NCBI GenBank assembly: GCA_031362295.1
Contig: JANLSG010000125.1
Coordinates: 1 to 48,669 of the forward strand
Direction: 5' to 3'
DNA length: 48,669 nt
Source of the DNA: Chloroflexota bacterium
Lineage (GTDB): Bacteria > Chloroflexota > Limnocylindria > Limnocylindrales > CSP1-4
Part shown: positions 25,631 through 41,060 of the stretch, one piece after another
Layout of the letters: each line of letters starts with the position of its first letter
Numbering within the stretch: position 1 is the stretch's first letter
The notes under the pieces: model-generated
Databases searched by the model: none
Seen by the model: the letters and a program-made list of their open reading frames with translations, nothing else
Told to the model about the DNA's origin: nothing
Translations under genes and position numbers: made by a program

Positions 25631-25675
25631 ATCGGCCGCTGTATCGCCGCTGAATCGCCGCTGAATCGCCGCGCC
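25631..25675. repeat. 11-bp tandem repeat ATCGCCGCTGA x4 (two perfect, two imperfect) in an intergenic region
   Basis: The units are atcggccgctgt, atcgccgctga, atcgccgctga and atcgccgcgcc. They start 15 nt after the mttB-like stop and end about 58 nt before the BNR gene start. Confidence 0.8.
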
Positions 25676-25732
25676 TCGGGCCTACACTTCGCTGCACCGT
25701 CGGCGGTCGAGCGCTTCGTGGAGGAATGCCCC

Positions 25733-27292
25733 GTGATCAGGCTCCAGTCGTTCCGGGTCGGGTTCCTCGTCGTGAACGCCGCCGCCCTCGCGGGCGCGGT
25801 CTTGGTGGCCCAGGGCATGCTGAACAGCGGCCCGCCGCAGGACGGACCCGCGCGCGGACCGAAGACAAGCCAGGCGGCACGCGTGACGCAGGCGCCCGCT
25901 GCAACGGAGAACACCGGCGCGGGTGCGGAGGACAACCCGGAGGCCGAGGAGCAGGCCGAAGCGGCCGAGGCCCACGCCATGGCGTTCGAGGCAGCTGTGC
26001 TTGCGGGTAAGGCCGGCATCGCGGTACCGATCGTCGTGAACGCCGCCGCCGGCTGGGCCGGCGAGCAGCTCGTGAGTGCCGCCGCGGATGACTGGGAACC
26101 GGCGGTTGCCGCCGATCCCAAGGTCTACGCGGACGGCAAGTCGTACGCCTACCTGTTGACGACGCGATACGCGAGCACGAAGCCGTGCCCGGGCAATTGC
26201 CCGACGCCATACATCGCGCTCTATACGAGCAGCAACGCTGGCGCCACCTGGTCCGCGGGCGTGCCGCTCTGTGCCTGCAAAGGCTCCGGCCAGTTCGACC
26301 CGATCATCGAGGTCGTTCAGAACACGGGCGCGGTCTACGCGCTGTACATGAACGGCTACAACATCATGTTCATCAAGTCGACCGACCACGGCGTTACGTG
26401 GGGCGCGCCCGTGAAAACATACGGCTCGGTGTCCTGGAACGACAAGCCCATCCTCGCGGTCAGCGACAACGGCAACGATGTCTACGTGATGTTCAACGGG
26501 CCTACCGGCGGGGATCCGTGGCTCGCCCAGTCGCACAACGGTGGGACGACGTGGGCCCAGACGAAAGTCGTGGACAGCAACCGCTACATCTTTGCCTTCG
26601 ACGGCGACGTCGATTCGAACGGGACGGCGTACTTCGCGATGACATCCATCCTCTATGGCGGAGGCGGCAACAAGGGCACGACCCCCACGAGCGCGATCGA
26701 GGAGCACGTGTACGTGATCACCGGCAACGGTGCCACGTTCACGGACCGCCTGGTTGGCTCCATCCAGCCGGGTCTCGCGTGCGTCGCCGCCGGCTGCCCG
26801 CCGGACTACTACCTGGGGCATGCGGCGATCACGGCCTATGCGGCCGGCAAGGTCACGCTCCTGTACGACGGCGCGACCGCCGCCGGCGGCCTCCAGACGA
26901 TCACCTCGCGGACCTCGACGAACGCGGGCCTGACGTGGTCGAATCCGGTCACGGTCTCCGCGATCGGCGAGGAAGCGACTGTCCCCGCGATCGAGGCCGC
27001 CAGCGCGACGGACATTCGAGCCTTCTACCAGCAGACGAGCGGCGGCGGCAACCCCGACGCCTGGAACGTCTGGTACCGGACGTCTTCGGACGGCGGTCTG
27101 ACCTGGACTGCGGCCGTGAAGATCTCCGATGCCTCGAGCGGCGCCGCTTACAAGACGGCCGCCGGCTTTGCTGAGATCTATGGCGACTACGGCGAGATCG
27201 CGGTCACCTCGACCGGGAAGACGATCGCGGCGTGGGGAGAGGGCACCAGCTACGACGGCCCGGGCGGCGTCTGGTTCAACCGCCAGCCATAA
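25733..27292 (+). CDS. Secreted/anchored BNR (Asp-box) repeat beta-propeller protein, sialidase-like fold
   Basis: GGAGGA lies 6 nt upstream of GTG 25733. An N-terminal TM/signal anchor is present. There are five SxDxGxTW-type boxes (SSNAGATWS, STDHGVTWG, SHNGGTTWA, STNAGLTWS, SSDGGLTWT). Confidence 0.8.
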   Translation: MIRLQSFRVGFLVVNAAALAGAVLVAQGMLNSGPPQDGPARGPKTSQAARVTQAPAATENTGAGAEDNPEAEEQAEAAEAHAMAFEAAVLAGKAGIAVPIVVNAAAGWAGEQLVSAAADDWEPAVAADPKVYADGKSYAYLLTTRYASTKPCPGNCPTPYIALYTSSNAGATWSAGVPLCACKGSGQFDPIIEVVQNTGAVYALYMNGYNIMFIKSTDHGVTWGAPVKTYGSVSWNDKPILAVSDNGNDVYVMFNGPTGGDPWLAQSHNGGTTWAQTKVVDSNRYIFAFDGDVDSNGTAYFAMTSILYGGGGNKGTTPTSAIEEHVYVITGNGATFTDRLVGSIQPGLACVAAGCPPDYYLGHAAITAYAAGKVTLLYDGATAAGGLQTITSRTSTNAGLTWSNPVTVSAIGEEATVPAIEAASATDIRAFYQQTSGGGNPDAWNVWYRTSSDGGLTWTAAVKISDASSGAAYKTAAGFAEIYGDYGEIAVTSTGKTIAAWGEGTSYDGPGGVWFNRQP

Positions 27293-27301
27293 CCGCCGCC
27301 G

Positions 27302-27946
27302 TCAGCCGAGCAGGAACGTCACGGAAACGCTGATCGCGATTTCGTTCGCGCCGGCCTCGACTGGTGTGGAGGCGTCTGTCATTGCCATCTTGGCCATCTC
27401 GCCGCGGTAGACCGGCGACGGGAGCGCCAAGCCGGCTTCGCTGATTGTCGCCACGCCCGCGATTGACACGCCCGCGGCTGCTGCCAGCACTTCGGCTTTG
27501 GCTCGCGCGTCCGCGACGGCTGCCTCGCGCGCCTCTTTCTCCGCTGCCGATGTGTCGCGCGTGCGGAAGACGATGCTGTCCAGCGTTGTCGCGCCGGCCC
27601 GCATCGCGCCGTCGATTGCTGTACCGACGTGAGCCAGGTCGCGGATCGTCACCGCCACGGTGTTGGCCATCGTGTAGCCCGTGAGCCGCGGAGGGTTCGT
27701 GTTGCTCGAGTAGTCGTACGCGGGGCTCAGCGTCAGGTTCGTGGTCTGGATATCCCGGGCCGCGATGCGCAACTCCTTGAGCGCGCCGATGACTTCTGCC
27801 ATTGCCGTCGCGTTGATGGCTCTCGCCGCCTCAACCGTTTCCGCGGTGAGCGTCACGCCGAGTCGAAGGTCGGCGACGTCCGGATTGACCGAGACCCGGC
27901 CCGTGCCGGTGACGTAGATCGTGCGGGGCGGGACGGCTTCGGGCAT
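27302..27946 (-). CDS. SIMPL (DUF541, BP26/OMP28-like) domain protein, without a signal peptide
   Basis: GGAGGAACGA lies upstream of ATG 27946. Motifs are VTGTGRVSVNPDVADLRLGV, NTNPPRLTGY and EAGANEIAISVSVTF. It is a paralogue of 40263-41060. Confidence 0.85.
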   Translation of the reverse strand: MPEAVPPRTIYVTGTGRVSVNPDVADLRLGVTLTAETVEAARAINATAMAEVIGALKELRIAARDIQTTNLTLSPAYDYSSNTNPPRLTGYTMANTVAVTIRDLAHVGTAIDGAMRAGATTLDSIVFRTRDTSAAEKEAREAAVADARAKAEVLAAAAGVSIAGVATISEAGLALPSPVYRGEMAKMAMTDASTPVEAGANEIAISVSVTFLLG

Positions 27947-28000
27947 TCGTTCCTCCACGTGGCCCACGAGTCTAGGAGGACGAGTATCTTCGGGCCCGTG

Positions 28001-28942
28001 ATGCCATCGATGACTCCCTCGCTCACCGTCTGCCTCCCGGACATGCCGGAGCTCGAGCACATGGGCGAGCTGCCCGCGAGCGTGGAGGTCGTGCTCGTCC
28101 GCGCCGAGCCCGAGCCCCTCCCGAATCTCGCCAACGTGGACCTCGTGGTCCCGCTCACGCGCATCCGGCCCCCGCTGCTGGAGCTCCTCGCCGGTCCCCA
28201 GGGCCGGTTGCGGATCATCCAGACCCTGAGCGCGGGCGTGGACTGGCTGGTGGGCAAGGTGCCTGCGCACGTCAGCGTCCACAACGCCCGCGGGATCTAC
28301 GACGGTCCGCTTTCGGAGTGGGTCATCGGCGCGATCCTCGCCATGCAGCGCGGGCACATCCGCGCGCGGGATGCGCAGGCGAAGGCCGCGTGGGACTTCT
28401 TCGAGCCCGACGAGCTCGAGGGTCGACGCGTCGTCATCCTGGGCATGGGCTCGATCGGGACCGCGATCGCGGATCGCCTGCGACCGTTCGGGGTCGATGT
28501 CGTCGGTGTCGGGCGCACCGCGCGCGACGGTGTTCGCGCCCTGTCGGAGCTCGACGCGATTCTGCCGACTGCCGACATCCTGGTCGCGATGCTGCCGCTG
28601 ACGAGCGAGACCAAAGGCCTGCTCGATGCGCGCCGCCTCGCACTCCTGCGCGACGGCACGCTGCTCGTCAATGCCGGTCGCGGCCGAACGATCGACACGG
28701 ACGCCTTGACGCGGGAGCTTCAAGCCGGCCGCCTGCGTGCGGCGCTCGACGTCATCGATCCCGAGCCGCTGCCCGCCGATCACCCGCTCTGGGCGCTGCC
28801 CAACGTGCTCATCACGCCGCACATGGCCGGGGATTCACCGTCGACGACGATGCGCTGCTTCGAGCTCGCCGGCGACCAGATCCGGCGCTTGGCGGCCGGG
28901 GAGCCGCTGGTCAACGAGGTGGCGCGCTATCTGCTCGAGTAA
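28001..28942 (+). CDS. D-isomer-specific 2-hydroxyacid dehydrogenase family, NAD-binding
   Basis: Motifs are GILGMGSIGTAIA (GxGxxG), LVNAGRGRTID and DVIDPEPLPADHPLW..NVLITPHMAG. The start is approximate (ATG 28001 or GTG 27998). Confidence 0.85.
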   Translation: MPSMTPSLTVCLPDMPELEHMGELPASVEVVLVRAEPEPLPNLANVDLVVPLTRIRPPLLELLAGPQGRLRIIQTLSAGVDWLVGKVPAHVSVHNARGIYDGPLSEWVIGAILAMQRGHIRARDAQAKAAWDFFEPDELEGRRVVILGMGSIGTAIADRLRPFGVDVVGVGRTARDGVRALSELDAILPTADILVAMLPLTSETKGLLDARRLALLRDGTLLVNAGRGRTIDTDALTRELQAGRLRAALDVIDPEPLPADHPLWALPNVLITPHMAGDSPSTTMRCFELAGDQIRRLAAGEPLVNEVARYLLE

Positions 28943-28964
28943 CGGGCGGCGCCGGGACTGACCG

Positions 28965-30173
28965 TCAGTCGACGGTATCCGGCGCTGCGGGCAGCGCGAA
29001 CCCGAACTCCGAACCAGGACCGGGCCGGGGGTTCCCCCAGATCCGCCCGCCGAGCAGGTCAACCAGGAGCCGGCAGGCGCTGAGCCCGATCCCGAGCCCC
29101 GACGCCATCTGCTTGGCGTTCTCAGTTCGATAGAACGCGGTGAACAACTCGTCCGTTTCGCCCGGCTCGAAACCGATCCCACGATCCAGGATGCGAACCT
29201 CCAGCCAGTCGTCGCGAACATCGAGCGCGACATCGAGCCGCTCCCCGGGCGGGCTGTACTTGTTGGCGTTCCCGAGCAGGTTGCCGAGCAGCAGCGCGAG
29301 ATACGCGCGATCGGCGTCGACGACGCGTCCACCAAGGTCACCGCTCACGTGGACCTCCCGTTCGGGGTGGCGGCGGGCAAACGTTGCCAGGGCGTCGTGG
29401 ACGACGTGATCGAGGACCTGCGGCTCGCGGTCCATGTCCACGGGCGTGCCCGCCCTCGTGAGCACGAGCAGGTTCTCGACGACCGCCGCGAGGCGCTCCG
29501 CCTCACTGCCGAGATCCCCGAGCAGCGAACCGAGCGGTTCGGCCACGTCCTTGCGGGCCGCCAGCAACTTGGCATTCCCGAGGATCGTCGTGACGGGCGT
29601 CCGGAGCTCGTGCGAGACGAGGCCAAGGAACTCGTCCTTGACGGCGATGGCCGCGCGGAGCCCATCCTCCGCGCGCCGCCGGTCGGAGACGTCGACCAGC
29701 ACGTTGATCGCGCCGATCATCTCGCCGCGCTCATCCATGACGACAGTCGGGTAGGGGACGAACGACACCCGCGTCCCATCGGGCCGCTCGGCGATGCCCT
29801 CATAGCCCCGGACGGAGCGGCGCTCCTTCAGGGAGATGGCCATTGGGCACTCGCCGTGAGCCATCGGCTCACCGTTCGGCCAGAACAGCTTCCACGAGCC
29901 GCACCACATCTCGCCAACCTGCGGCTCGCGGCCCCACAGGGTGGCGGCGGCCTCGTTGTAGAACGTGATCCGCCCGCCCGCGTCCGTCGTGTAGACGGCG
30001 ACGCCGAGCGCCTCGAGGAACGGCCGATAGCTTGGCGTCGCCGCCGACGCCTCCTGGAGGACCAGCGTCGGTCCGATGGCGGGACCGGCGTCGCGCCGAG
30101 GCGGCACCCGCGACGCAGGAGGGCTCGCGTAGGTGCGGCCAACGGGTGAGTGGCCGAAGAGGCGGGTCTGCAT
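28965..30173 (-). CDS. Cytoplasmic PAS-domain sensor histidine kinase, orphan
   Basis: The PAS domain is GVAVYTTDAGGRITFYNEAAATLWG...WCGSW...HGECPMA. The H-box is VSHELRTPV, the N-box is LLGNLLGNANKYS and the G-boxes are ILDRGIGF and GLGIGLS. There are no TM helices. The start lies 3 nt after the dps stop. Confidence 0.9.
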   Translation of the reverse strand: MQTRLFGHSPVGRTYASPPASRVPPRRDAGPAIGPTLVLQEASAATPSYRPFLEALGVAVYTTDAGGRITFYNEAAATLWGREPQVGEMWCGSWKLFWPNGEPMAHGECPMAISLKERRSVRGYEGIAERPDGTRVSFVPYPTVVMDERGEMIGAINVLVDVSDRRRAEDGLRAAIAVKDEFLGLVSHELRTPVTTILGNAKLLAARKDVAEPLGSLLGDLGSEAERLAAVVENLLVLTRAGTPVDMDREPQVLDHVVHDALATFARRHPEREVHVSGDLGGRVVDADRAYLALLLGNLLGNANKYSPPGERLDVALDVRDDWLEVRILDRGIGFEPGETDELFTAFYRTENAKQMASGLGIGLSACRLLVDLLGGRIWGNPRPGPGSEFGFALPAAPDTVD

Positions 30174-30176
30174 GTC

Positions 30177-30791
30177 CTAGGCCTCGACCAGGGGGGCCTC
30201 GACGACGTGCTCGGCGATGAACCAGACCTGCATCTCGTTGCGACGCAGGACGTCGCCCATCAGCAGGTCGTTGGACCCCATGTCCTTGTTCTTCTCCGTC
30301 GCGTCGATGCCGGCGCGGACCTTCTCGAGGATCGTCTCGTGCGCGTCGAGCAGGCGCGAAAGCACGACCGGCACCTCTTCCGCGCCGTCGGGCGCGCGGG
30401 GGATGGTCGTCAACTCGGCCGCGTGGCGCGGGTCGCCGACGCTGATCCCGCCGAGCATCTGGACGCGTTCGGCGATCGCATCGACAAGCTCCACCTGCTC
30501 CTCGTAGTGCTTGTCGAACAGGAGATGGAGCTGGTAGAAGGTCGGCCCGGCCGCGTTCCAGTGCGCCTTCTTGTACAGCGCGCCGAGGACCATCGAGTCC
30601 GCCAGGATCTCGTTGAGGATCTGGCAGCTCTCAGTCCGCGCCTTGGCAGCAAGGGCGATCGGCAGCTGGCGCAGGGTTCCGAAGCGCTGAAGCTCCGGGG
30701 CGGCCTGGCCCATTCGCGGCTGGGGCGAGACGCGCTTGGTGGTTGACGCGTGGCCGTTCTTCGACGGCGCGTGGCGGGTCGTGGTTGCCAT
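30177..30791 (-). CDS. dps: Dps-family DNA-binding ferritin-like protein
   Basis: Ferroxidase-site context is YKKAHWNAAGPTFYQLHLLFDKHYEEQVELVDAIAERV. GGAGGA lies 7 nt upstream of ATG 30791. Confidence 0.9.
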   Translation of the reverse strand: MATTTRHAPSKNGHASTTKRVSPQPRMGQAAPELQRFGTLRQLPIALAAKARTESCQILNEILADSMVLGALYKKAHWNAAGPTFYQLHLLFDKHYEEQVELVDAIAERVQMLGGISVGDPRHAAELTTIPRAPDGAEEVPVVLSRLLDAHETILEKVRAGIDATEKNKDMGSNDLLMGDVLRRNEMQVWFIAEHVVEAPLVEA

Positions 30792-30972
30792 GGGTTGATC
30801 CTCCAGGGTGCTTGGCGGCAAGCATCGGCGACGAGCAGCGCTGTGAGCACTGCCGACGCTGGGCGAGGACTTGCAGGTCCGTGGCAGTCCGATTTGCGTT
30901 TGCAAGGGACTTGGCACATCCCTGGCGGCCCGGCTGATCCGGACGGCAACCTCTGTCGGTCACCATTTGGAG

Positions 30973-31596
30973 ATGCCTGTCACAACAGGCGGACGACCCG
31001 TGCCCATGAGCGCACGGGTGACACGGCGCCAATTGCGTGCCGCTGCTTCCTTTGTGGTTTCCGCCTTCTTTGTCATTGCCGCCGCCGCAACCGTCGGCGC
31101 CGAACCAACCGGGCCCAGGACCGTTCCGGACTCCGCGTTCGGCCCTGTCTCGCTCCTGCCGGGATCGTCCACGGACATCCCGGGGCTTCGCCAAGCTCCT
31201 GACCTCGCGGTGGTCATAGATCCCTGGATCGCGACCGCCCTGCCCGCGCGTCCGCAGCCGTCGCTCCCGACCGTAAAGCCCGCCACGGTGGTCGTGGCAC
31301 CGAAGACGACCCACAAGATCGGCGGGGCCGCCTCGTACTACTGCCGCGCCGGCAGCTCGCCGTGCACGAACGGCTACGCGGACGGGTCCGGCTTCGATGC
31401 CTACGCCGCCGCCGGGCCTCGACTGCGGGCCGCCCTGGGCTCCGACTGGAGGGGCAGCATCGTCTACGTCGATGGCGTCCGGGTGAAGCTGATCGACTGG
31501 TGCCAGTGCTACCAGGGCGAATCGAACGAGAAGCTCCTGGACCTGTACTACGACGTCTTCGCGCGGACCGGCGGATCAGTCACCATTCGCTGGTAA
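30973..31596 (+). CDS. Secreted RlpA-like double-psi beta-barrel (DPBB) domain protein
   Basis: An N-terminal signal/TM (AASFVVSAFFVIAAAATVGA) is followed by a Pro-rich linker. The C-terminal pattern is GGAASYY...AAAGPRL...VYVDGVRVKLIDWCQC...LLDLYYDVFARTG..VTIRW. The start is ATG 30973 or 31006. Confidence 0.55.
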   Translation: MPVTTGGRPVPMSARVTRRQLRAAASFVVSAFFVIAAAATVGAEPTGPRTVPDSAFGPVSLLPGSSTDIPGLRQAPDLAVVIDPWIATALPARPQPSLPTVKPATVVVAPKTTHKIGGAASYYCRAGSSPCTNGYADGSGFDAYAAAGPRLRAALGSDWRGSIVYVDGVRVKLIDWCQCYQGESNEKLLDLYYDVFARTGGSVTIRW

Positions 31597-31644
31597 GGTC
31601 GGGCGTCTGACCGCATCGGCATCGATGGAGGCTTCGACTGAGCG

Positions 31645-32151
31645 ATGAGCGACTCGACGGTGGACCCGACGCTGGACCGGCTGCTTCGCCACATGGCCTG
31701 GGCGAACGCCTCGCTCATATCGACGCTCGCCGGGCTGTCCGACGACGCGCTTGCGCTGGCGGCCCCGCGCAACGAGTGGGCCGCCGGCAGGATCCTGGAC
31801 CACCTCGTGAACGCGGCAGGCGGGTACGCGAACCGCCTCGATGGCAAGCCGCGCATGGATCCGCCCCCGCCGACGACAACGATCGCCCAGCTGGCCGATC
31901 TTGCCGCGCGCTGCGCCGGATACGACGCCCGCCTCCGTGCCCACGCGTCGCTTCCCGAGGGAACCGCCGCCTACGACGCGCCGGACCAGATCCGCCGCGC
32001 CCGCTCTACCGTGCTGGGCCAGGCGATCCACCATGCGACCGAGCACCGGGCGCAGATCGCCGGCGCGCTGGCCACGAACGGGATCGACGCCCTGGACCTT
32101 GACGCACTCGACCTTTGGGCATACGGCGAAGCCGAGGGCCTCGGGGCATGA
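31645..32151 (+). CDS. DinB-family (four-helix bundle, metal-dependent) protein
   Basis: LLRHMAWANASLISTL ... ILDHLVNAAGGY ... AIHHATEHRAQIA gives the His triad spacing typical of DinB_2. Confidence 0.8.
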   Translation: MSDSTVDPTLDRLLRHMAWANASLISTLAGLSDDALALAAPRNEWAAGRILDHLVNAAGGYANRLDGKPRMDPPPPTTTIAQLADLAARCAGYDARLRAHASLPEGTAAYDAPDQIRRARSTVLGQAIHHATEHRAQIAGALATNGIDALDLDALDLWAYGEAEGLGA

Positions 32152-32393
32152 CGTCGACCGAGGCGATCGTCCTTGTCATCGTGGCAATCGTGTGCGTCGT
32201 GATCGACGCGCTGATCGTCTATCAGATTCGGAGAGGGGAATCCTTCGCGTTCTCGTCCCAGAAGTGGGAGGCGCCGCAGCGGCGCTCTCGCACCACAACG
32301 CCGCGGGCGTTCTGGCTGGTCATCGGCATGCAGGCACTCGTTGCGAACGGGGTGCTCCTGTACCTGCTCTGGTTTGCCCTCTCGACGATGTAG
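32148..32393 (+). CDS. Small two-TM membrane protein, hypothetical
   Basis: An ATGA overlap with the DinB stop suggests translational coupling. There are two hydrophobic helices. Confidence 0.5.
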   Translation: MTSTEAIVLVIVAIVCVVIDALIVYQIRRGESFAFSSQKWEAPQRRSRTTTPRAFWLVIGMQALVANGVLLYLLWFALSTM

Positions 32394-32424
32394 TCATCGG
32401 GAAGGCCGGGCTGGATCGGCGCGT

Positions 32425-33747
32425 ATGTCAGTCGTGCGCCTCCTCGTTGCCATCGCTGCCCTGGCCATGCTCGCCGCGTGCACAGCCGTGGATCCGCAGG
32501 CGAGCGGCGTCGCGAGCGAGCCCGGCGCGACCTCGGCCTCGTCTGCGCGCCTGGGTGTCCGGGACCTCGTCTCTCTCCCCGGGGCGGTCGTCGGCAGCTT
32601 TTCAGCGGTGCGGGAATCGGATGAGGCGACGCGCTTGACCGTGTCCATCACGGGGCCAGGCCCGCGGCCGTGGGGCATCTACGACCAGGCCGGGTGCGCG
32701 CCGCCGCAGGTCGATCACGATGCGCCGTTCCAGTTCGCCGACATCGAGGACGGCAGCCGGACGGAGCAGGTGGAGACACCGGGCTACCTGGCGTATCCCT
32801 CGAACCTGGTGGTCCTCGTCTTCGGGCCGGACGGGGGATCGATCGCTGGGTGCGCGGACCTCGGGGGCCCGGCCGTCGCGCTTGCGTCACCCGGCGCGAC
32901 GGACGTCTGCGACGAGCCGAGTCGATCGGGCGGGCCGGGCGGCCTCGATTCAGTGCTTGCCGACCTTGCGTTCTCGAAGGAGGCGCTCTCCAACAGCGAC
33001 ATCTACGTCATCGCGAGCGACGGGTCCAATGTCAGGCGAATGACCGACGCGCTGGGTCTCGACATGAAGCCAACGTGGTCGCCCGACGGCCGGCAGATCG
33101 CGTTCCGGACGAGTCGCGACGGACAGGACGAGATCTACGTCATGGCCGCCGACGGGACATGTGAGCGAAACCTGACGCTGAGCCCGAAGGACGATCGATC
33201 GCCGGCGTGGTCGCCAGGCGGGTGCGAGATCGCGTACGACCACTTCTTCGACGCCCGCTTCCAGGACATCGCCACCATTCCGGTGGCTGGGGGTGAGCCG
33301 CGGCGCATCACCACGAAGTCGGGGGAATATCCGAGCTGGTCGCCAGATGGTCGTCGCATCGCCTTCGCCTCGGCTCGAGACGGTGACTATGACGTCTACG
33401 TCATCAACGCAGACGGGTCCGGCGAGCGCCAGGTCGCGGACCTCCCGGGCTACCAGTTCTATCCCGCGTGGTCGCCGGATGGCCTTTGGCTGGCGTACGA
33501 GAGCGGGCAATCGACCATCGAGGGCCTCCAGATCCACGTGATGCGAGCCAACGGGCAGGACGATCGTCCGATCACGCACGACACGGCGACGAACCGCTTC
33601 CCGGCATGGTCGCCGGACGGGCGCCTGTCCTGGTCCGCTTCGGGGACAATCGTCGTCGCGGCATCGCTGAATGCGGCGCCGGTGGCGATCGGACCGGGTC
33701 AGTTTCCTGCCTGGCGACCGACCGCCACCGACGAAGCCGCTTGCTGA
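32425..33747 (+). CDS. Lipoprotein with TolB-like PD40/WD40 beta-propeller repeats
   Basis: The lipobox is LAMLAAC. WSPDG repeats recur (TWSPDGRQIAF, AWSPGGCEIAY, SWSPDGRRIAF, AWSPDGLWLAY, AWSPDGRLSW). Confidence 0.85.
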   Translation: MSVVRLLVAIAALAMLAACTAVDPQASGVASEPGATSASSARLGVRDLVSLPGAVVGSFSAVRESDEATRLTVSITGPGPRPWGIYDQAGCAPPQVDHDAPFQFADIEDGSRTEQVETPGYLAYPSNLVVLVFGPDGGSIAGCADLGGPAVALASPGATDVCDEPSRSGGPGGLDSVLADLAFSKEALSNSDIYVIASDGSNVRRMTDALGLDMKPTWSPDGRQIAFRTSRDGQDEIYVMAADGTCERNLTLSPKDDRSPAWSPGGCEIAYDHFFDARFQDIATIPVAGGEPRRITTKSGEYPSWSPDGRRIAFASARDGDYDVYVINADGSGERQVADLPGYQFYPAWSPDGLWLAYESGQSTIEGLQIHVMRANGQDDRPITHDTATNRFPAWSPDGRLSWSASGTIVVAASLNAAPVAIGPGQFPAWRPTATDEAAC

Positions 33748-33760
33748 GCTCGCGACGTGA

Positions 33761-34072
33761 CTACATCGCCGCGAACGTCTCCGAGACGACCACGGTGGCC
33801 CCACCCTCGAGGACGGGGCACATGCCGGCGACCTTGAGCGCGGTGTCCATCGAGTCCACCTTGATGACCGAGTAGCCGGACGGCGCCATGGTCGCGTCCA
33901 TGACCGCGCCATCGGGCGAGATGGCCTTCGACTGCGAGGTCGGGTTGCCGCCGTCGACGAGCGCATCGCCGAGCTGTTCGAACCAGGCGCCCCAGGCCGC
34001 GGTGACCTTGGCGGTGTCCTCGGCGGAGTCGGGCATGCCGCCGCCGTAGTAGGTGAGCAGGAAGTTTGCCAT
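33761..34072 (-). CDS. YCII-related small protein (paralogue 2)
   Basis: The sequence is MANFLLTYYGGG..TAAWGAWFEQLGDALVDGGNP... It is collinear with and similar to the upstream paralogue. Confidence 0.65.
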   Translation of the reverse strand: MANFLLTYYGGGMPDSAEDTAKVTAAWGAWFEQLGDALVDGGNPTSQSKAISPDGAVMDATMAPSGYSVIKVDSMDTALKVAGMCPVLEGGATVVVSETFAAM

Positions 34073-34134
34073 GTTGTTCAGGTCTCCAGTTGCATTGCTT
34101 GGTGGTGGGAGTCGTGTCGCGAGAGGCGGGCGTC

Positions 34135-34425
34135 TTACATGGCCATCGCCTCGTACAGCCGAACGCTGTCGATGATCGGGCAGCCCTCGAGGAGGCGTTC
34201 GGCGTCCTCCATGGTGTTTGCCGAGAGGATCGAGTAGCCGCCCGCAGCGCCCATCTCCGGCGTCAGGTCGCGGCTGCCGGTCGGGGTGACCTCGCGGCAG
34301 TTGCCCAGCGGGTTGCCGCTGTCGACGATGTGGTCGCCCACCTTCTCGAACCAGGCCATCCAGGCGGCCACGACCTCCGGCGTCGGTTCGATGTAGCCGT
34401 AGCTGAGCATCAGGAACTTCTTCAT
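34135..34425 (-). CDS. YCII-related small protein (paralogue 1)
   Basis: The sequence is MKKFLMLSYGYIEPTPEVVAAWMAWFEKVGDHIVDSGNPLG. An ATGA overlap links it to the arsR-type gene stop. Confidence 0.65.
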   Translation of the reverse strand: MKKFLMLSYGYIEPTPEVVAAWMAWFEKVGDHIVDSGNPLGNCREVTPTGSRDLTPEMGAAGGYSILSANTMEDAERLLEGCPIIDSVRLYEAMAM

Positions 34426-34781
34426 CGCTGGTCACCCTCTGCTGTCGTCGGATCGGTGGTGAGGAATTGCGTGTAGTTCTCCAGAGTTTCCTTCTCGGTG
34501 CCCCAGTACGCGTGGAACTCGCCGAGCCACGCCTGGAGGTCGCGCATGCACGCCCGATCGAGCGTCAGGAACGTGGTCCGCCCGAGCTTGCGCCGGTCCA
34601 CGATGCCCGCGTCCACCAGGACGCGAACGTGCTTGTTGATCGCCGGCAGGGAGAGCCCCCGGATGCTCGCGAGCCGGCTGATCGAGTGCGGCTGGAGACC
34701 CAGGAGGCGGACCATCTCGCGGCGATGACGGTTCGCCAGCGCCTCGAACAACCGATCCAGCCCTTCCGCAGCCTCGAGCAT
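34422..34781 (-). CDS. ArsR/SmtB-family transcriptional regulator
   Basis: The wHTH is LFEALANRHRREMVRLLGLQPHSISRLASIRGLSLPAINKHVRVLVDAGIV. It is the first gene of the arsR-YCII-YCII operon. Confidence 0.88.
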   Translation of the reverse strand: MLEAAEGLDRLFEALANRHRREMVRLLGLQPHSISRLASIRGLSLPAINKHVRVLVDAGIVDRRKLGRTTFLTLDRACMRDLQAWLGEFHAYWGTEKETLENYTQFLTTDPTTAEGDQR

Positions 34782-34793
34782 CTCCGCCCCATG

Positions 34794-34817
34794 ACAGTTA
34801 ACTTGTCGGTTAACTGT
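34794..34817. promoter_or_regulatory. Candidate ArsR operator: perfect 9-bp inverted repeat ACAGTTAAC-N6-GTTAACTGT
   Basis: An AT-rich palindrome stands out from a GC-rich background. It lies 13 nt upstream of the arsR start (34781, minus) and abuts ATG 34818 of the divergent GNAT relic. Confidence 0.55.
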
Positions 34818-35310
34818 ATGACGCGCGATCCGACACGTCAAGACCGCGCGAACCGGCCTCGGCCGTGCTGTAGCGTTCGCCGGGAACGCATTCGAACACG
34901 GCACGGCGCATGAAGTCGCCGGCTTCGCGGGGGTCGCCCTCTGGTTTCCGCCTGGTGTTGGCTCCGATGATGCAGCGTTCTCGGCGCTGCTCGAGGAGGT
35001 CGCGACCGACTCGAATCGGGACGATCTCGACGGCTTCTTCGGCCAGATGGGCGACCTCCATCCGACGTTCGACCACTGGTACCTACTGCTTGCGGGCGTC
35101 GATCCACCCGCGCAGGGCCATGGCCTGGGCTCGACCCTGCTCAGGCACGCGTTCGAAACGTGTGACCGCGACGGCCTGCCCGCGTACCTCGAAGCGACCG
35201 CGCCGCGCAATCGCGACATGTATGCGCGCCACAGGTTCGACGAGATCGGCGTGATCCAGCAGGGCGGGTCGCCGCCGATGTGGCGAATGCTCCGCCAGCC
35301 CCGCCATCTT
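34818..35310 (+). pseudogene. GNAT-family N-acetyltransferase, apparently frameshifted after codon 3 and lacking its own stop
   Basis: ATG 34818 is in frame 0 (MTRD...). GNAT similarity and high GC3 run in frame +1 from about 34822 (IRHVKTA...GVALWFPPG...HWYLLLAGVDPPAQGHGLGSTLL...LPAYLEATAPRN...PMWRMLRQP). That frame has no start codon before ATG 35047. Confidence 0.45.
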
Positions 35311-35391
35311 CGATGGGCCTGCGCGGGCCGTCGAATGCGCGCGAACCGTCGCCGCGGAGGTGCAGGCGCTAGGAATCTCCATCAGGGCTGG

Positions 35392-35481
35392 GTGTCACGT
35401 GCGGGTCCATCCGAAGTGCTGGTCACCTCAACGGTCTGGGATCTCGTCGCCGGCTCTGGCCTGGAGTTCGCAGACAGCGGA
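35392..35481 (+). pseudogene. About 30-codon relic of the C-terminal end of a class III adenylate/guanylate cyclase domain
   Basis: VSRAGPSEVLVTSTVWDLVAGSGLEFADSG matches the conserved A.PGEVLVS.TV.DLVAGSG.EFEDRG end of cyclase homology domains. The rest of the domain is absent. Confidence 0.35.
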
Positions 35482-35539
35482 GATTCGTCATCCCATCTCA
35501 TTCGAATGGGATCGTGCGGCCCCAAGAGGCGATGGGGAA

Positions 35540-35575
35540 GTGGAGCGGGAGAAGGGTCTCGACCGCTGGCCCTTC
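35540..35575 (-). repeat. Partial copy of the tRNA-Gly 3' end (att-like direct repeat)
   Basis: GTGGAGCGGGAGAAGGGTCTCGA (35540-35562) is identical to 39646-39668, which spans the T-loop through CCA plus 1 nt. Nine of the next 13 nt also match. Confidence 0.8.
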
Positions 35576-35584
35576 CCGGCTCGG

Positions 35585-38500
35585 CTAACGGATACCGATC
35601 GTGAGGGTGTGCGTTGGCTGAAGCGTCAGGTAGGGATTAACGATCGCGGTCCCGGCGACACTCGCCTTCAGCTCGTAGAGGGCCGCGGCGGTGAGGCCCT
35701 TTGTCCCGAGATTGAAGATGAACTGGTGGGAGGTCGCGTCGTACCGGAAGCAACTTCCCGTATTCGGTGTGGAGCTGGTGACAACCTCATCGACAGGTGG
35801 CGCGGTACCAGACGTCCTCGACAGCGAGATCGTCGCACCACAAGCCGTCGCGATGGAGGATGCTGCGGTATCGAGGATCGAAGCTCCGTTCGCATAGGCG
35901 AGGGCGAACTTCACGGGGATCGTTGAGCCTCCCTTGAAGACGCTCATCGGGTTCAGCGCGGAGATCGGGTCGTTCAGCGGCTGGTAGAACCCTATGAACC
36001 TGTATCCCACCGTGACCGTGAACGACGCCGAGAAGGGGACTCCGGATACGTCGATCGCTCCGCACTGGACTGTCGTCGTGCCGATCGGGAACACCGTGCC
36101 TGAGGCTGGGGCGCAGACGGATGTGACCATTCCGCCGTTGGAGTCCGTCGCGGTGACTCCGAACGTGACGACCGCGCCCGAGGAGCCGGTCGCGACCGCG
36201 AGCACCGGGGATGGGACGGACAGGACTGGGATCCTGGTCGCCAGAGCGAACGGTGAGAGCGAAGTCGTGGTTCCGCAGACCATCTGGTTGACCGCGTCCA
36301 CGGTGGTCGTGATGTCGACCCAGGCACCACCTACGTAGTGGAGGAGGTTCGTTGGTGAAGGGGTGACGCCAGCGTACGAAAGGCAAACGGTGATCGTCCC
36401 GCTGTACGTCGCCGTGGTCGTGATGTCGTAGAAGGTCGGCGGACTGCCGATCTGGTAGCCGATCGGCAGCGCCGGTTCCGTGGAGCTCGTCGTGAGCAGC
36501 GACGCTCCCGCCACCGTGACCGTCCCGAAGGTCACGGTGGCCTGGGCCGTCCCGTCCGGGGACGCCGGCTCGACGACGACGCCCGCACCGGGCGGCGTAT
36601 ACCCGAGTGGCCGAACGGTGACGGTCGTGCAGGAGGTTCCATCGCTGATATTTCCGACCCCGTCGGCTGCGCGAACGCAGGCGGTATGGATCCCCGCTGA
36701 CAGAGCTTCGAAACCTGCGACCCGCGCCGGTGTCGGTCTGCCGAACGTCATGTTCCCATCGCCGAGTTGACCAAAGTAGTTGGAGCCCCAACAGTCGACT
36801 ACGCCCGAAGCGAGCAACGCACACGTGAGCTGGTCGCCAGCCGTGATCGACCGAACCCCAAGGAGTGCCTGGACGGCCACGGGTACGAGCCGGACGGTTT
36901 GCGTGCCGTCGCCGACTTCTCCATGGCCGTTGCGACCCCAGCATCTGACGGCCGTGTCGGCCAGGAGCGCGCATGTGTGGGCGTCGCCGGCAGCGACGTC
37001 GACCGCGCCCGAGAGGCCCACGGGGGCGACGGGGATGAGTCGATCCGTCGTCGATCCGTCGCCGAGCTGACCGGCGAAATTCGCACCCCAGCACCGGACG
37101 GTGCCGTCGTCGAGCAACGCGCAGGCGTGGGTCACCCCCGCCGAGATCTCGGCGACACCTGCCAGACCATCAACCGCGACGGGGATGAGCCGATCCGTCG
37201 TCGTCCCGTCGCCGAGCTCACCATGGTAATTCGAGCCCCAGCAGCGCCCGGTGCGATCGGCGAGTACCGCGCACGTGTAATACGGACCTGCCGAGATGGA
37301 TGTCGCACCAGCGATGCCCAGGACCGCGACCGGGGCTGATCGTTGGTTCGTTGTTCCGTCGCCCAGCGCGCCAGCGTCGTTGCGACCCCAGCACCACACG
37401 AAGCCACCACCGTCCAGCGCGCAGGTGTCCCAGTAGCTTGCGGTGATTGCGCGGATGCCCGTCAGGCCGACGACCGTGCTCGGACTGAGGTGTTCGATCG
37501 TCGTCCCGTCGCCGAGCTGGCCGGTGCTGTTGTCGCCCCAGCAACTGACGGTGCGATCGCCGAGGAGCGCACATGAGTGGCGGTAACCCACGGCGATCGC
37601 GAGGACATTGGATAGGCCCGCGACCGGCACAGAGAGGCTGCGGTCAACCTTCGTCCCGTCGCCGAGCTGGCCACCCGAGTTCTCGCCCCAGCACCGAACG
37701 TTGCGATCCGCGGTCAGCGCGCACGTATGCGTGACTCGCGCCACAACATCGATGGCGGACGCTCCGTAGGTCCGGCTGACGGCCTCACTCGTCCCGCCGA
37801 AGGCACCATCGGCAGCACCCATCTGCATCCATGGTCCACCGTCCACGCTGAGGTGCGCCCAGGCAACCGCCGTCGCGTCAGTCGCGATGGCCGTTGCGCT
37901 GAGGGCCCCGCCGAAGGCTGACGGGTTTGGCGCGAGCTGGAGGGCCGTCACCACGGGTGGCAACCCGTCGACAACGAGTCCCGAGCACGAACTGCCCGGG
38001 CTGACGTTGCCGGTACTGTCCGTCGCCCAGACGCACACCGTGTATGCCCCGGCAACAGAGAGCGCGGTGATCGAGGCGGTCAGCGCCTCGCTGGTCCCTC
38101 CAAAGACTCCGTCGACGGCCGTCATGGCGGTGGAACCGAAGTTGAGGGCATCGAGGGCCGGGTCGCGGGCGCCGATCGCGTACGTTGCGAGACTTGAACC
38201 CGTCGTCTCCCAGTTCCAGGCGACGAAGCCGGCCACGCCGGCGGCCATCTGGTCCGCGCGCTTCGCGGCCAGGAGGGTCGCGCGACCCGCATATCCGCCG
38301 GCGAGGTTCGGGATGATCCCGGCCTCCCCGACGAAGATGGGCTTGTTCAGCTCGCCGCACTGGCTGATTCGCCTGACAAGGCCGTTGAATGTGTCGGCCG
38401 GCAGGCTGACGGTGGGGCTCGTGTAGTCGTGGTACTCGCAGAGGTCGATCGTTGCGACGTCGTGGACGGTCTTGTACTGATCCCCAACGGCTCCGCACTG

Positions 38501-39457
38501 TCCACTGCCGATTGTGCCCAGACTCACGAGATGGCTCGGGTCGAGGGACTTGACCATGCCAGAAACGTCGGCCGCGAAGTTCTTCAGGATCGTCGCTCGG
38601 AGGTTGCCCTCGGCGTTCGCCGGGTTACTCGGATCGCCGTGCGCCGGGCAGGCCTCGCTGGAAGTTGTCCGGACCTCGGCTTCGTTCACGAGTTGCCAGA
38701 ACGCGATCCGAGGATCGCCGCTGTAGCGCGTGACGACGTCATGGACGTAGTCTCGATAGGCCTTGTAGAGCCCGGGACCCGGCGTCGTCTTGTAGCCGTC
38801 GACATACCACTGCTTCGTCTTGAACGAACCTGGCATGACATCGAGGCCGTCCCCGCACTCGCCCCATTGGTTCGTGAGGGTCGCAATCACCTTCAGGCCG
38901 TGCGCGTCGGCGACGGCTAGGGTGTGGTCGAAGGCCGACCAGTCGTATGCACTGCCCGCACCGATCGTCGGCTGGGCGAGGTTCTGGAAGAACCAGGAGC
39001 GCATGACCTGCTTGCCGGCACCCCATTGGTCGAGCGTCGAGCTGAGCGCGGGTCCGGACCCCAGATTCGTGCCGGTGCAGCCGGTGTTGCGGACGTTGCT
39101 GGCGTTGTAGAGGTTGAGGCCCGTGAAGCGGTATGGCAGGCCGTCGAGGGTCAGCTGCGTGCCGTTCCGTCCCACGACTCCGCTATTGCTGCGTCTGACG
39201 GTGACCTGAGCCGAGACGATGCCACCGTCATCGGTGGCGGTCGCGGTGATTCCCGTGATGGGACCGCCGATTGCCACCGTCGACGGGACCAAAACAGGCG
39301 TCGTGAGCGAGGGCGGTGTCGTGTCGAGCGCACGGACTACCGAGACTGGCGACATGGTGCCGATAATGAGCCCGACGATGGCAGCTACCGTGAGCCTCGC
39401 GGGAAGCCGGTGCCACGAACCGCTACGGCCCGTCCGTGCAGGCGGCTGCTTGGACAT
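35585..39457 (-). CDS. Large secreted multidomain protein: signal peptide, Ig-like, GH5 glycoside hydrolase (mannanase/cellulase-type), Ig-like x2, seven RCC1 repeats, HYR-like and C-terminal PxKF domain
   Basis: The signal is RLPARLTVAAIVGLIIGTMSPVSVVRA. GH5 motifs are FWQLVNEAE and GFVAWNWE. There are seven CWGxNxxGQLGDG repeats. The HYR-like segment is VVTFGVTATDSNGG..CAPASGTVFPIGTTTVQC, and STIPVKF is the PxKF motif. The start is set at ATG 39457 (MSKQPP). Confidence 0.88.
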   Translation of the reverse strand: MSKQPPARTGRSGSWHRLPARLTVAAIVGLIIGTMSPVSVVRALDTTPPSLTTPVLVPSTVAIGGPITGITATATDDGGIVSAQVTVRRSNSGVVGRNGTQLTLDGLPYRFTGLNLYNASNVRNTGCTGTNLGSGPALSSTLDQWGAGKQVMRSWFFQNLAQPTIGAGSAYDWSAFDHTLAVADAHGLKVIATLTNQWGECGDGLDVMPGSFKTKQWYVDGYKTTPGPGLYKAYRDYVHDVVTRYSGDPRIAFWQLVNEAEVRTTSSEACPAHGDPSNPANAEGNLRATILKNFAADVSGMVKSLDPSHLVSLGTIGSGQCGAVGDQYKTVHDVATIDLCEYHDYTSPTVSLPADTFNGLVRRISQCGELNKPIFVGEAGIIPNLAGGYAGRATLLAAKRADQMAAGVAGFVAWNWETTGSSLATYAIGARDPALDALNFGSTAMTAVDGVFGGTSEALTASITALSVAGAYTVCVWATDSTGNVSPGSSCSGLVVDGLPPVVTALQLAPNPSAFGGALSATAIATDATAVAWAHLSVDGGPWMQMGAADGAFGGTSEAVSRTYGASAIDVVARVTHTCALTADRNVRCWGENSGGQLGDGTKVDRSLSVPVAGLSNVLAIAVGYRHSCALLGDRTVSCWGDNSTGQLGDGTTIEHLSPSTVVGLTGIRAITASYWDTCALDGGGFVWCWGRNDAGALGDGTTNQRSAPVAVLGIAGATSISAGPYYTCAVLADRTGRCWGSNYHGELGDGTTTDRLIPVAVDGLAGVAEISAGVTHACALLDDGTVRCWGANFAGQLGDGSTTDRLIPVAPVGLSGAVDVAAGDAHTCALLADTAVRCWGRNGHGEVGDGTQTVRLVPVAVQALLGVRSITAGDQLTCALLASGVVDCWGSNYFGQLGDGNMTFGRPTPARVAGFEALSAGIHTACVRAADGVGNISDGTSCTTVTVRPLGYTPPGAGVVVEPASPDGTAQATVTFGTVTVAGASLLTTSSTEPALPIGYQIGSPPTFYDITTTATYSGTITVCLSYAGVTPSPTNLLHYVGGAWVDITTTVDAVNQMVCGTTTSLSPFALATRIPVLSVPSPVLAVATGSSGAVVTFGVTATDSNGGMVTSVCAPASGTVFPIGTTTVQCGAIDVSGVPFSASFTVTVGYRFIGFYQPLNDPISALNPMSVFKGGSTIPVKFALAYANGASILDTAASSIATACGATISLSRTSGTAPPVDEVVTSSTPNTGSCFRYDATSHQFIFNLGTKGLTAAALYELKASVAGTAIVNPYLTLQPTHTLTIGIR
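36708..37735 (-). repeat. Seven tandem coding repeats of ~150 bp (RCC1 blades), visible at DNA level
   Basis: CCGTCGCCGAGCTG-type cores recur on the plus strand near 36755, 37060, 37207, 37505 and 37655. The protein motif CWGxNxxGxLGDG occurs seven times. Confidence 0.7.
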
Positions 39458-39646
39458 CGAGACACCTTCGCCGGGTTGACGCGCGTCACGGGATGGGACG
39501 CAGACATGGCGCCCGTCAGGGACGGTGCGAGCGCACGTTCGCCGCATGGGCGATCTCACGAGCGCTTACGTCGAGCCTTGAACGAGGGTCGACGGCACGG
39601 TGCGCCACGGTGCACGCCGATGTCAAGTGACCGATTACAGGCGGGG

Positions 39647-39722
39647 TGGAGCGGGAGAAGGGTCTCGAACCCTCGACCTTCTGCTTGGGAAGCAGACGCT
39701 CTGCCAACTGAGCTACTCCCGC
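39647..39722 (-). tRNA. tRNA-Gly (anticodon CCC), CCA encoded
   Basis: The reverse complement is GCGGGAG-TA-GCTC-AGTTGGCA-GAGC-G-TCTGC-TTCCCAA-GCAGA-AGGTC-GAGGG-TTCGAGA-CCCTT-CTCCCGC-T-CCA. All four stems pair and the length is 76 nt. Confidence 0.95.
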
Positions 39723-39766
39723 TCGGGAGTCCCGAATTCTAGCGGGCGAGCGCTGAGCGAGCGTGG

Positions 39767-40258
39767 TCAGGGGGTGGCCATGTCCGCCGTGACGGCCGCG
39801 ATCTCCGCGGGGGTGAGGTGCGCTCGCCCCGCGTCGAGAAGGAGCCGTTCGACGGTTCGACCCTCGTCAACGCGGTGCTGGCGCGGCCCGACGCCGGGAG
39901 GAGCGACCGTCCCCTGAAAAGCGACGACGGTTTCATCGGCCAATCCGGCTCGCCTGATCACGAGGGTGAAGCCGTGGTATCCGAGTCCACCCACCGGTGG
40001 CTCGCCGACGCGGACAGGGAGTGCCGAGATGGCCCCGATGACCAGCGATACCTCGGCGTCCGTGAGGTCCCACGATGGGTCTGGGCGACCGGAGTAGATG
40101 CCGAGGGTGACCATGACGTGCGCCTGCGCCGTTGGCCCGCTGCAGCCGGCCAGGGTGAGCGCCAGAAGGGCGACAACGATCGACACTGCCAAACCGAGCC
40201 CGCCGGCGAGGATCTCATTCTGGCCCGAACTGTCGAAGCGATCCGATGCTGCCGTCAT
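39767..40258 (-). CDS. Hypothetical lipoprotein
   Basis: The lipobox is LTLAGC. It lies 4 nt downstream of the SIMPL gene stop, so is probably co-transcribed. No family was recognised. Confidence 0.6.
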   Translation of the reverse strand: MTAASDRFDSSGQNEILAGGLGLAVSIVVALLALTLAGCSGPTAQAHVMVTLGIYSGRPDPSWDLTDAEVSLVIGAISALPVRVGEPPVGGLGYHGFTLVIRRAGLADETVVAFQGTVAPPGVGPRQHRVDEGRTVERLLLDAGRAHLTPAEIAAVTADMATP

Positions 40259-40262
40259 GTTC

Positions 40263-41060
40263 TCAGCCTATGAGGTACACGACCGAGACGGTTACCGTGA
40301 CCTCGGTGGAGCCTGGCTGTACAGGCGTCTGGACGTCCTTGCCCGGGGCGCCGGCTGCCCCGTAGCCGTAGTACACGGGGTACGGGACCGGCGCGACCGT
40401 CTCGCTAATCGAGGCGACGCCGGAGATCGACACGCCGGCTGCGTCGGCGAGCGTCTTCGCCTTGGCCTTCGCCTGGTCCATCGCGGCCTGGCGCGCCTGC
40501 TGCTCGGCGGCCGTCTGGTCGGCGACCCGGAACGAGACGCCATCGAGGCTCGTCGCGCCCGCGGCGAGGGCGTCGTCGATCGCGTCGCCCAGCTTCTCGA
40601 GGTCGCGAACTGTGACCGCGACTGCGTTCGAGAGCTGATACCCAGTAAGGCGTGGCGGGTTCGTGTTGAGGCTGTAGTCGTAGACCGGCTGCAGCGAAAG
40701 CGCCGTCGTCTGGATGTCCTTGTCGGCGATGCCGAGGTTCTTAAGGCTGGCAATGACCGCGGTCATCGAGGTCGCAGCGGCGGCTCGAGCGGCCTTCACG
40801 GTCTTCGCCGTGGAGCTGACCCCGAGGCGAAGGTCCGCGGTGTCCGGGCTCAGGACGATGCGCCCGGTGCCGGAGACCGCGATGGTGTGCTCGTTCGCGC
40901 CGGTGGGGTCAACGGCCAGGGTCGGTCGCGCGGAGAGCAACGGTCCTGCGAGGACCGCGGCCAGCATGCCGAGTGCCAGGCCCGTCGCGAGCCAGCCGGT
41001 TCGTGACGCCGGGAGCGGCAAGGGGATCGAGATCGTTCGGGAAGGCATCGCGGGCTCCAT
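40263..41060 (-). CDS. SIMPL (DUF541, BP26-like) domain protein with N-terminal signal/TM
   Basis: Motifs are GWLATGLALGMLAAVLAG, VSGTGRIVLSPDTADLRLGV, NTNPPRLTGY and QPGSTEVTVTVSVVY. The start is ATG 41060 or 41048. Confidence 0.85.
   Translation of the reverse strand: MEPAMPSRTISIPLPLPASRTGWLATGLALGMLAAVLAGPLLSARPTLAVDPTGANEHTIAVSGTGRIVLSPDTADLRLGVSSTAKTVKAARAAAATSMTAVIASLKNLGIADKDIQTTALSLQPVYDYSLNTNPPRLTGYQLSNAVAVTVRDLEKLGDAIDDALAAGATSLDGVSFRVADQTAAEQQARQAAMDQAKAKAKTLADAAGVSISGVASISETVAPVPYPVYYGYGAAGAPGKDVQTPVQPGSTEVTVTVSVVYLIG

Follow-up and report, generated by a model that had tools for sequence, protein, structure and literature searches.

How did a single gene for a large secreted or anchored protein come to be flanked by a tRNA gene on one side and, on the other, by a displaced copy of the 3' end of the same tRNA? 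The question is raised by positions 35,540 to 39,722 of contig JANLSG010000125.1 (assembly GCA_031362295.1), which belongs to a Chloroflexota bacterium of the class Limnocylindria (Limnocylindrales, CSP1-4). The 48,669 nucleotides (nt) of the contig analyzed here are referred to as the window. Limnocylindria are abundant uncultured Chloroflexota of soil and freshwater and, to our knowledge, little is known about their mobile elements. The original prediction, made from the sequence alone, described the locus as a one-gene islet bracketed by attachment-site (att)-like repeats and lacking an integrase. The evidence presented below suggests that the segment 35563-39645 is probably a genomic islet with a single gene, inserted into the 3' end of a tRNA-Gly(CCC) gene by site-specific recombination, and that it is non-autonomous and of the cis-mobilisable element (CIME) type. 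The 3' flank of this tRNA gene is a hot spot of gene gain and loss in Limnocylindria (Chloroflexota). The islet and its boundaries consist of the following features:

39647-39722, minus strand: tRNA-Gly(CCC) gene, intact and with an encoded CCA; putative integration target, its 3' end forming the proximal junction.
39646-39668, no strand assigned: proximal copy of the 23-bp exact repeat, from mid-T-loop through the CCA plus one nt.
39458-39645, minus strand: left arm of the islet, or leader, 188 nt between the tRNA gene and the gene start, collinear and 79% identical with a second instance on contig L084.
35585-39457, minus strand: the sole islet gene, encoding a protein of 1290 aa, secreted or anchored, that combines a GH5 mannanase-like region with a propeller of six RCC1 repeats, with Ig-like and HYR domains and, at the C-terminus, with a PxKF domain.
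35563-35575, no strand assigned: degenerate extension of the distal copy, in which 9 of 13 nt match the T-stem and variable region of the tRNA; putative element-side arm of the junction.
35540-35562, no strand assigned: distal copy of the 23-bp exact repeat; putative displaced original 3' end of the tRNA gene.

The tRNA-Gly(CCC) gene was identified with ARAGORN as the only tRNA gene in the window and matched Rfam RF00005 with 69 bits. The 23-mer GTGGAGCGGGAGAAGGGTCTCGA consists of the final 22 nt of this tRNA and one flanking nucleotide, and it occurs exactly twice in the window, on the same strand. No further site was found there with up to three mismatches, where none was expected by chance (0 in 100 shuffles), and neither the entire tRNA nor its 47-nt 3' part, used as queries, revealed a third, degenerate att copy in the window. 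In the alignment of the distal copy to the tRNA strand, 23 of 23 positions match, followed by 9 of 13 (chance P of about 0.003) and then by 1 of 11, which delimits a homologous block of about 36 nt. All four mismatches in the 36-nt block are confined to its inner 13 nt (P = 0.012). The locus thus contains a co-oriented direct repeat of the 3' part of a tRNA gene, with the second copy placed downstream of the tRNA 3' end, as in scars of tRNA-targeted integration. The exact recurrence in the same orientation and the partial match beyond it had both been described in the original prediction, with which ARAGORN, Rfam, the exact-match scan and the alignment of the copies agree. The two copies are separated by 4083 nt, a trivial difference from the 4084 bp given initially, and this interval contains only the 1290-aa gene, as was claimed.

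This geometry can be explained if the incoming DNA brought its own copy of the tRNA 3' part, which would now complete the tRNA that functions at 39647-39722. The 3' end that the chromosomal tRNA gene had before would have been pushed 4.1 kb away and would survive as the exact 23-mer at 35540-35562, and the imperfect 13 nt beside it would represent the arm of the element. The sharp edge of the mismatches in the T-loop fits what a recombinase crossover at this position would leave, rather than uniform decay. We infer the recombination mechanism, the position of the crossover in the T-loop and the action of an enzyme in trans; the repeat, the single gene, the lack of a recombinase in the reading frames scanned, the second instance and the break in synteny at the tRNA end are direct observations.

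As proposed from the sequence, the stop codon of the islet gene is located 22 nt from the exact distal core, and 189 nt separate the start of the gene from the tRNA gene. The stop codon is 9 nt from the degenerate extension. The protein has a hydrophobic signal or anchor at its N-terminus. Its six RCC1 repeats and the HYR domain exceed the Pfam cut-offs, the match to an immunoglobulin (Ig)-like domain (Big_13) in Pfam is weak and below the threshold, and the PxKF domain at the C-terminus corresponds to NCBIfam NF038114. The GH5 (glycoside hydrolase family 5) assignment is derived from similarity to solved GH5 endo-beta-mannanases (E 1e-13 to 1e-10), with no GH5 call in Pfam or NCBIfam. The domain labels in the original prediction (GH5, RCC1, HYR and PxKF) therefore hold, GH5 solely through this similarity. 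The leader contains a TTGACA motif and a tandem GCACCGTG motif that are common to the window and L084 in the alignment. The TTGACA and the two copies of the latter motif, 10 nt apart, lie at around 39600-39625 on the minus strand of the window and at L084:50-95, and they could represent a promoter or operator, or protein-binding sites in the arm of the element. A strict sigma-70 scan identified no consensus promoter in the islet.

A second instance of the same architecture was found in a metagenome. Among 5.8 billion proteins, there is a single close homolog of the islet protein (P0002), which is 80% identical in amino acid sequence over its full length, and all other matches have at most 56% identity and cover single domains only. 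P0002 is encoded on the 4268-nt Logan contig L084 from metagenome ERR14788466. This contig starts with CGAGGGTTCGAGACCCTTCTCCCGCTCCAC, the final 30 nt of tRNA-Gly and the same flanking C, and ends with CTTCCCAAGCAGAAGGTCGAGGGTTCGAGAC, 31 nt that are exact to tRNA-Gly from the anticodon loop to the T-loop. Assuming that Logan contigs are built from a 31-mer assembly graph, the two ends are of about the length expected if the graph branched at a repeat of about 46 nt, the sequence of this site being CTTCCCAAGCAGAAGGTCGAGGGTTCGAGACCCTTCTCCCGCTCCA. The gene is thus bracketed by tRNA-Gly 3' sequence also in the organism from which L084 is derived, and the distal copy is longer there and intact over the 31 nt covered. 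The stop codon and the distal copy are 142 nt apart in L084, while in the window the exact core follows after just 22 nt, which suggests that the window has lost this spacer (about 140 nt) along with the 5' end of the repeat.

To compare the locus with relatives that lack the gene, we used homologs of u163, a 163-aa gene that adjoins the tRNA gene, by which close relatives were found on contigs L085, L086, L087 and L099. The tRNA gene is anchored in all four by the following segment:

39767-41060, minus strand: conserved right flank with u163 (163 aa, lipoprotein-like) and a SIMPL/DUF541 gene.

From the SIMPL gene through u163 to the tRNA gene, L085, L087 and L099 share 83-90% identity with the window, and the homology stops at window positions 39643-39647. 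L085 is a 181-kb contig with 84-90% nucleotide identity to the window, and it is collinear from a homocysteine methyltransferase gene through the SIMPL gene, u163 and the tRNA gene, with homology ending at 39643. The tRNA gene is followed in L085 by 5 kb of other DNA, which contains a 112-aa open reading frame (ORF), AbiEi/AbiEii and fragments of DAO and GCV_T genes, and homology resumes at the DinB gene (window 32147-31627), which is followed by the dehydrogenase, MttB and ABC transporter genes. In L087, the sequence after the tRNA gene encodes a LivM-like permease, and in L099 an unrelated gene. Neither the large gene nor a second tRNA fragment was found in L085, L087 or L099. Synteny thus breaks at the 3' end of the tRNA gene in three relatives without the insert. 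All 76 nt of the tRNA gene are identical in L085, L087, L099 and two more contigs, L002 and L003, and with L003 counted, there are five different sequences directly 3' of the identical tRNA. Such diversity is typical of a tRNA-linked integration hot spot and identifies the islet gene as accessory.

Two observations had been named from the outset as speaking against an integration scar, namely that the 23-mer is a dispersed repeat and that relatives without the large gene nevertheless carry both copies. Neither was made. In the 100 fetched loci, the 22-nt tRNA 3' end within the 23-mer is confined to tRNA-Gly genes and the start of L084, and a second tRNA fragment is missing from the three relatives. 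Together, the second instance on L084, the synteny breaks in the three relatives and the non-dispersed 23-mer support the central claim of the original prediction, that the repeats represent an att-type scar of site-specific insertion and that they bound an islet without a recombinase of its own.

Other candidates for comparison were less useful. A search with the exact 76-mer of the tRNA gene in 185,579 species genomes recovered only L002 and L003, which are distant Chloroflexota metagenome-assembled genomes (MAGs), one of them a Candidatus Limnocylindrales, with no synteny to the window and hence no empty site. A metagenome scan with the SIMPL protein yielded 80 loci, but the best 28 of the 80 all lack the tRNA gene and their homology ends at the SIMPL stop codon, for which reason they were judged too distant. 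In more distant homologs of u163 (L088, L089 and L092-L098), the tRNA gene does not adjoin u163. In L035 and L008, which are also more distant relatives, the SIMPL gene is located 1.7-2.5 kb from the ortholog of a large helicase/RNase H-like gene, whereas the two are 19.5 kb apart in the window (17165-20764 versus 40263-41060), and the stretch from 20.8 to 40.3 kb, including the tRNA gene, is therefore lineage-specific at the depth of these two contigs. The 18 nt upstream of the tRNA gene (window 39723-39740) read AGAATTCGGGACTCCCGA, with a TAGAAT-like box inside, and are near-invariant in L085, L087, L099, L002 and L003, even though the last two are distant MAGs, unlike the DNA after the CCA, which differs in every genome compared.

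No match to an integrase, excisionase or transposase family was obtained for the ORFs scanned, in the main and alternative frames, in the islet or in the 48.7-kb window, and long ORFs in the other frames of the islet matched no family. The ORFs scanned across the window represent ordinary chromosomal or accessory genes, including those for a thiamine pyrophosphate (TPP) enzyme, a GGDEF-EAL protein, PBP1, a helicase, an ABC transporter, an MttB-like protein, a histidine kinase, a ferritin-like protein, DinB, a PD40 propeller, an ArsR regulator, two SIMPL copies, an alpha/beta hydrolase and an FGGY kinase. The original statement that no such gene is present inside or beside the repeats agrees with these scans. 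An integrase gene inside the element, where it is usually placed beside the tRNA gene, is thus missing from the islet, and L084 is too short to contain one. Gene calls over 20 kb of L085 include no recombinase either. Since the islet encodes no recombinase, the recombination must have used an enzyme encoded elsewhere, which may have been a tandem neighbor that has since been lost or a gene at another location in the genome.

The divergence between the two instances provides information about the age of the arrangement. The islet genes of the window and L084 differ by a synonymous divergence (Ks) of 0.63, with a ratio of nonsynonymous to synonymous divergence (Ka/Ks) of 0.19, which indicates purifying selection and that both gene copies are functional. 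For the flank genes, Ks between the window and L085 or L086 is 0.2-0.52. In the window, the 23-bp core of the distal site is exact and its inner part is diverged and partly deleted, and L084 keeps at least 31 exact nt. The probability of such conservation under neutral decay was estimated with a rate set to half of the 21% leader divergence, the leader probably being constrained, and on the assumptions that there was one old insertion and that the distal fragments are old non-coding DNA. The probability is 0.078 that the window keeps 23 exact nt and 0.032 that L084 keeps 31, or 0.0025 jointly, and it is far below 0.0025 with synonymous-site rates. This is moderate evidence that the sites may have been used after the two lineages split or may be under selection, and the good conservation in both lineages, set against neutral decay, hints at past mobilization in trans.

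These data bear on what has happened to the islet since its insertion. It is a serious possibility, although short of an even chance, that the islet is an immobile relic of a larger island with an integrase beside the tRNA gene, which inserted once in a common ancestor and was deleted down to this gene, then descended vertically with losses in some relatives, so that the repeats would be dead scars. Collinearity of the leader and the gene is kept between the window and L084 with a divergence like that of host genes, codon usage is near native, the distal site in the window is eroded, and a pseudogene adjoining it suggests local decay. However, a dead scar should decay evenly, whereas the mismatches are found only in the inner part of the block, the joint retention of exact nucleotides in the two lineages is improbable as estimated above, and vertical descent calls for several losses in L085, L087 and L099 that were independent of one another and precise at the tRNA end. 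Alternatively, the islet could be a functional, non-autonomous cassette that is still repeatedly excised and re-inserted by a recombinase encoded elsewhere, with the core repeat kept as a working site. The same one-gene architecture with intact core repeats in two lineages at this synonymous divergence agrees with such activity, as do breaks that are all precise and located at the tRNA end, and a patchy distribution in which the gene is absent from three relatives, while the flank genes of L085 and L086 are no more diverged than the gene copies. Ongoing activity of this kind is nevertheless rather unlikely, given that the distal site in the window is lost or diverged 5' of the T-loop, with the neighboring spacer deleted relative to L084, that the scans of the window and of L085 produced no recombinase, that the protein database contains only two instances, and that neither a circular junction nor an empty site was observed. 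Activity after the split is thus favored by the conservation of the sites and the patchy distribution, and fixation by erosion, rarity and near-native codon usage; as the distal site is partly eroded, the islet is probably becoming fixed in this genome. A broader scenario, which we consider quite unlikely, is that a family of single-gene cassettes with tRNA-derived sites is actively swapped at the tRNA-Gly(CCC) 3' end in Limnocylindria by a recombinase encoded elsewhere, with the core kept by selection and the five alleles as its output. Such a system would shuffle genes for surface proteins or secreted enzymes, anchored at a tRNA gene, and would be loosely comparable to integron cassettes.

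Explanations that do not involve integration fare worse. The distal fragment could be a remnant of a tandem-duplicated tRNA-Gly gene or a product of illegitimate recombination, and the D-arm 7-mer AGCTCAG at L084:4231-4237, two bases upstream of the distal tRNA fragment, may stem from a tRNA copy that was once longer and suffered an internal deletion, or it may be due to chance. This 7-mer is a post-hoc observation, however, and in the window the similarity stops about 36 nt from the 3' end, with the 5' half of the tRNA at chance level (7 of 41 positions). Partial copies that extend from the anticodon loop or the T-loop to the 3' end are also the usual product of tRNA-targeting recombinases (PMC3146451; 10.1101/2020.12.28.424599), and the breaks in synteny at the tRNA end in the relatives fit an insertion, all of which makes an origin of either kind very unlikely. 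It is extremely improbable that the tRNA-like fragment is kept after the stop codon as an element for the 3' processing or stability of the mRNA. The core repeat is conserved and located within 22 nt of the stop codon in the window, but this spacing is not conserved in L084, where it is 142 nt. Moreover, the predicted fold of the distal-fragment region is no more stable than that of shuffled sequences (z = -0.87), the fragment has no Rfam match at E up to 1, and no terminator-like site was found at the fragment or in the islet.

Several observations weigh against the interpretation of the segment as a site-specifically inserted islet. An empty-site allele, in which the tRNA gene is joined to the DNA to the left of 35540, is absent from L085, L087 and L099, where it was looked for as the original prediction had proposed; the sequence that follows the tRNA gene in these three is not similar to the DNA to the left of 35540. 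A cognate integrase, or an integrase-bearing island at this site, was not found in the 100 fetched loci, and no search was aimed at such islands in genome or metagenome collections. L084 is a 4.3-kb contig that ends within the repeats and has no host flank, and it fits an integrated as well as a circular form. With two instances among the 5.8 billion proteins, the element is not proliferating. Composition, which had been suggested as a check, gives a mixed answer: the tetranucleotide profile of the islet deviates more than any other in the window (z = 3.4), and the GC content at third codon positions (GC3) of the large gene is 0.806, the second lowest of 31 window genes (others 0.886 +/- 0.035; z = -2.2), but both measures are confounded by the unusual repeat-rich protein, from which the deviation may merely stem, and a GC3 of 0.81 is still near native. 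Finally, in comparison with L085, the indel extends to the DinB gene at 32147, 3.4 kb past the distal repeat, and synteny does not confirm the distal boundary, which is therefore defined by the repeat itself and by L084 rather than by an empty site. The additional DNA is as follows:

32148-35539, no strand assigned: further accessory DNA past the distal repeat, with a PD40 propeller gene, a 103-aa unannotated ORF, an ArsR-type regulator gene and a GNAT remnant; absent from L085 and not bounded by a tRNA fragment.

The PD40 gene is found elsewhere in non-syntenic contexts. Two of these (L091 and L100) were considered as anchors, but they are not syntenic with the left flank of the window, which could therefore not be anchored. 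The GNAT-like frame directly beside the distal repeat (34819-35330, plus strand) is probably a pseudogene. It has no ATG, GTG or TTG before 35047, only the C-terminal half of the acetyltransferase fold was matched, and its spurious open frame continues across the repeat to 35604.

The islet resembles several known systems, without being identical to any of them. CIMEs were defined for Streptococcus and are catalogued in ICEberg 2.0 (PMC6323972). Like these, the islet is bounded by attL-/attR-type repeats, contains cargo but no integration or transfer genes, and is located at a site used by integrative elements. It differs from CIMEs in that no cognate autonomous element, such as an integrative and conjugative element (ICE) or an integrative and mobilizable element (IME), was found at the same site in the 100 fetched loci or in viral contigs, in that it targets a tRNA gene and belongs to an uncultured lineage of Chloroflexota, and in that there is only one cargo gene. 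Its two sites are, furthermore, putative att sites, judged by their sequence, and in the window the distal one shows partial erosion. For the viral contigs, two scans with the tRNA 3' part returned no matching site, the sole match being a phage tRNA-Gly(UCC).

The closest resemblance within the phylum Chloroflexota is to the ssrA islands of Dehalococcoides, 15 of which lack the integration module and have been proposed to be cis-mobilisable (PMC3146451). The repeat geometry is very similar, with a poorly matching stretch just inside the repeat, the region downstream of the RNA gene is hypervariable in both, and some of those islands are without a recombinase (PMC3146451). However, the Dehalococcoides islands target ssrA (tmRNA), form tandem arrays and in many cases carry the serine recombinase DsiB (PMC3146451), whereas the islet targets tRNA-Gly, occurs singly rather than in an array and has no detected resolvase or recombinase domain, and the repeat in L084 is longer, reaching back to the anticodon loop. 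With neither ssrA nor a DsiB module, it is the repeat geometry alone that is similar. In the tRNA-flanking islands of Prochlorococcus, partial tRNA copies mark past integrations, the content is mostly cargo, and degenerate elements without an integrase are common (bioRxiv 10.1101/2020.12.28.424599). The islet is like these islands and the remnants of tycheposons in its partial tRNA copies, its cargo content and the lack of an intact integrase. Tycheposons themselves have two defining components, a site-specific integrase, which is nearly always a tyrosine recombinase, and a replication module (bioRxiv 10.1101/2020.12.28.424599), and the islet contains neither. As att-bounded islands without an integrase represent an already described category, the suggestion in the original prediction that the islet could be something not yet described is unneeded. 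What distinguishes the islet is its minimal size, its survival with the same form in both lineages and its occurrence in an uncultured host group.

The comparison of the window with L085 also revealed that the whole neighborhood is a mosaic. L085:11119-11195 and L085:16210-16287 form a direct repeat of about 75 nt with 88-92% identity, which corresponds to the 3' end of the 2-hydroxyacid dehydrogenase gene (window equivalent 28848-28924). The repeat brackets a 5.1-kb block with AbiEi/AbiEii, the DAO and GCV_T fragments and DinB, and by its sequence it looks like a second, different insertion scar, in which the 3' end of a protein-coding gene would have been duplicated. Further indels between the two contigs are located at 25598-28027, 28944-31627 and 20805-22322 in the window and at L085:7968-9086. 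A second SIMPL/DUF541 paralog (at about 27302-27932), the histidine kinase gene with the ferritin-like gene and a response regulator gene are found only in the window, and a Fic gene between the hydrolase and SIMPL genes is found only in L085. The gene for an MttB-family methyltransferase at 24045-25616 on the plus strand (Pfam E 1e-185) adjoins an ABC-2 transporter gene, and this arrangement is kept in L085.

For the biology of the group, the locus illustrates a rapid turnover of genes at the 3' end of tRNA-Gly(CCC) in one genus of the Limnocylindria. It also demonstrates that a large secreted glycoside hydrolase/propeller protein can be carried as a one-gene unit with tRNA-derived bounds. 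If the islet is a relic, it is a clean textbook integration scar, which is useful for annotation and unsurprising. If it is still mobilized in trans, it would point to a recombinase encoded elsewhere and to a route by which extracellular enzymes may be exchanged among uncultured bacteria.

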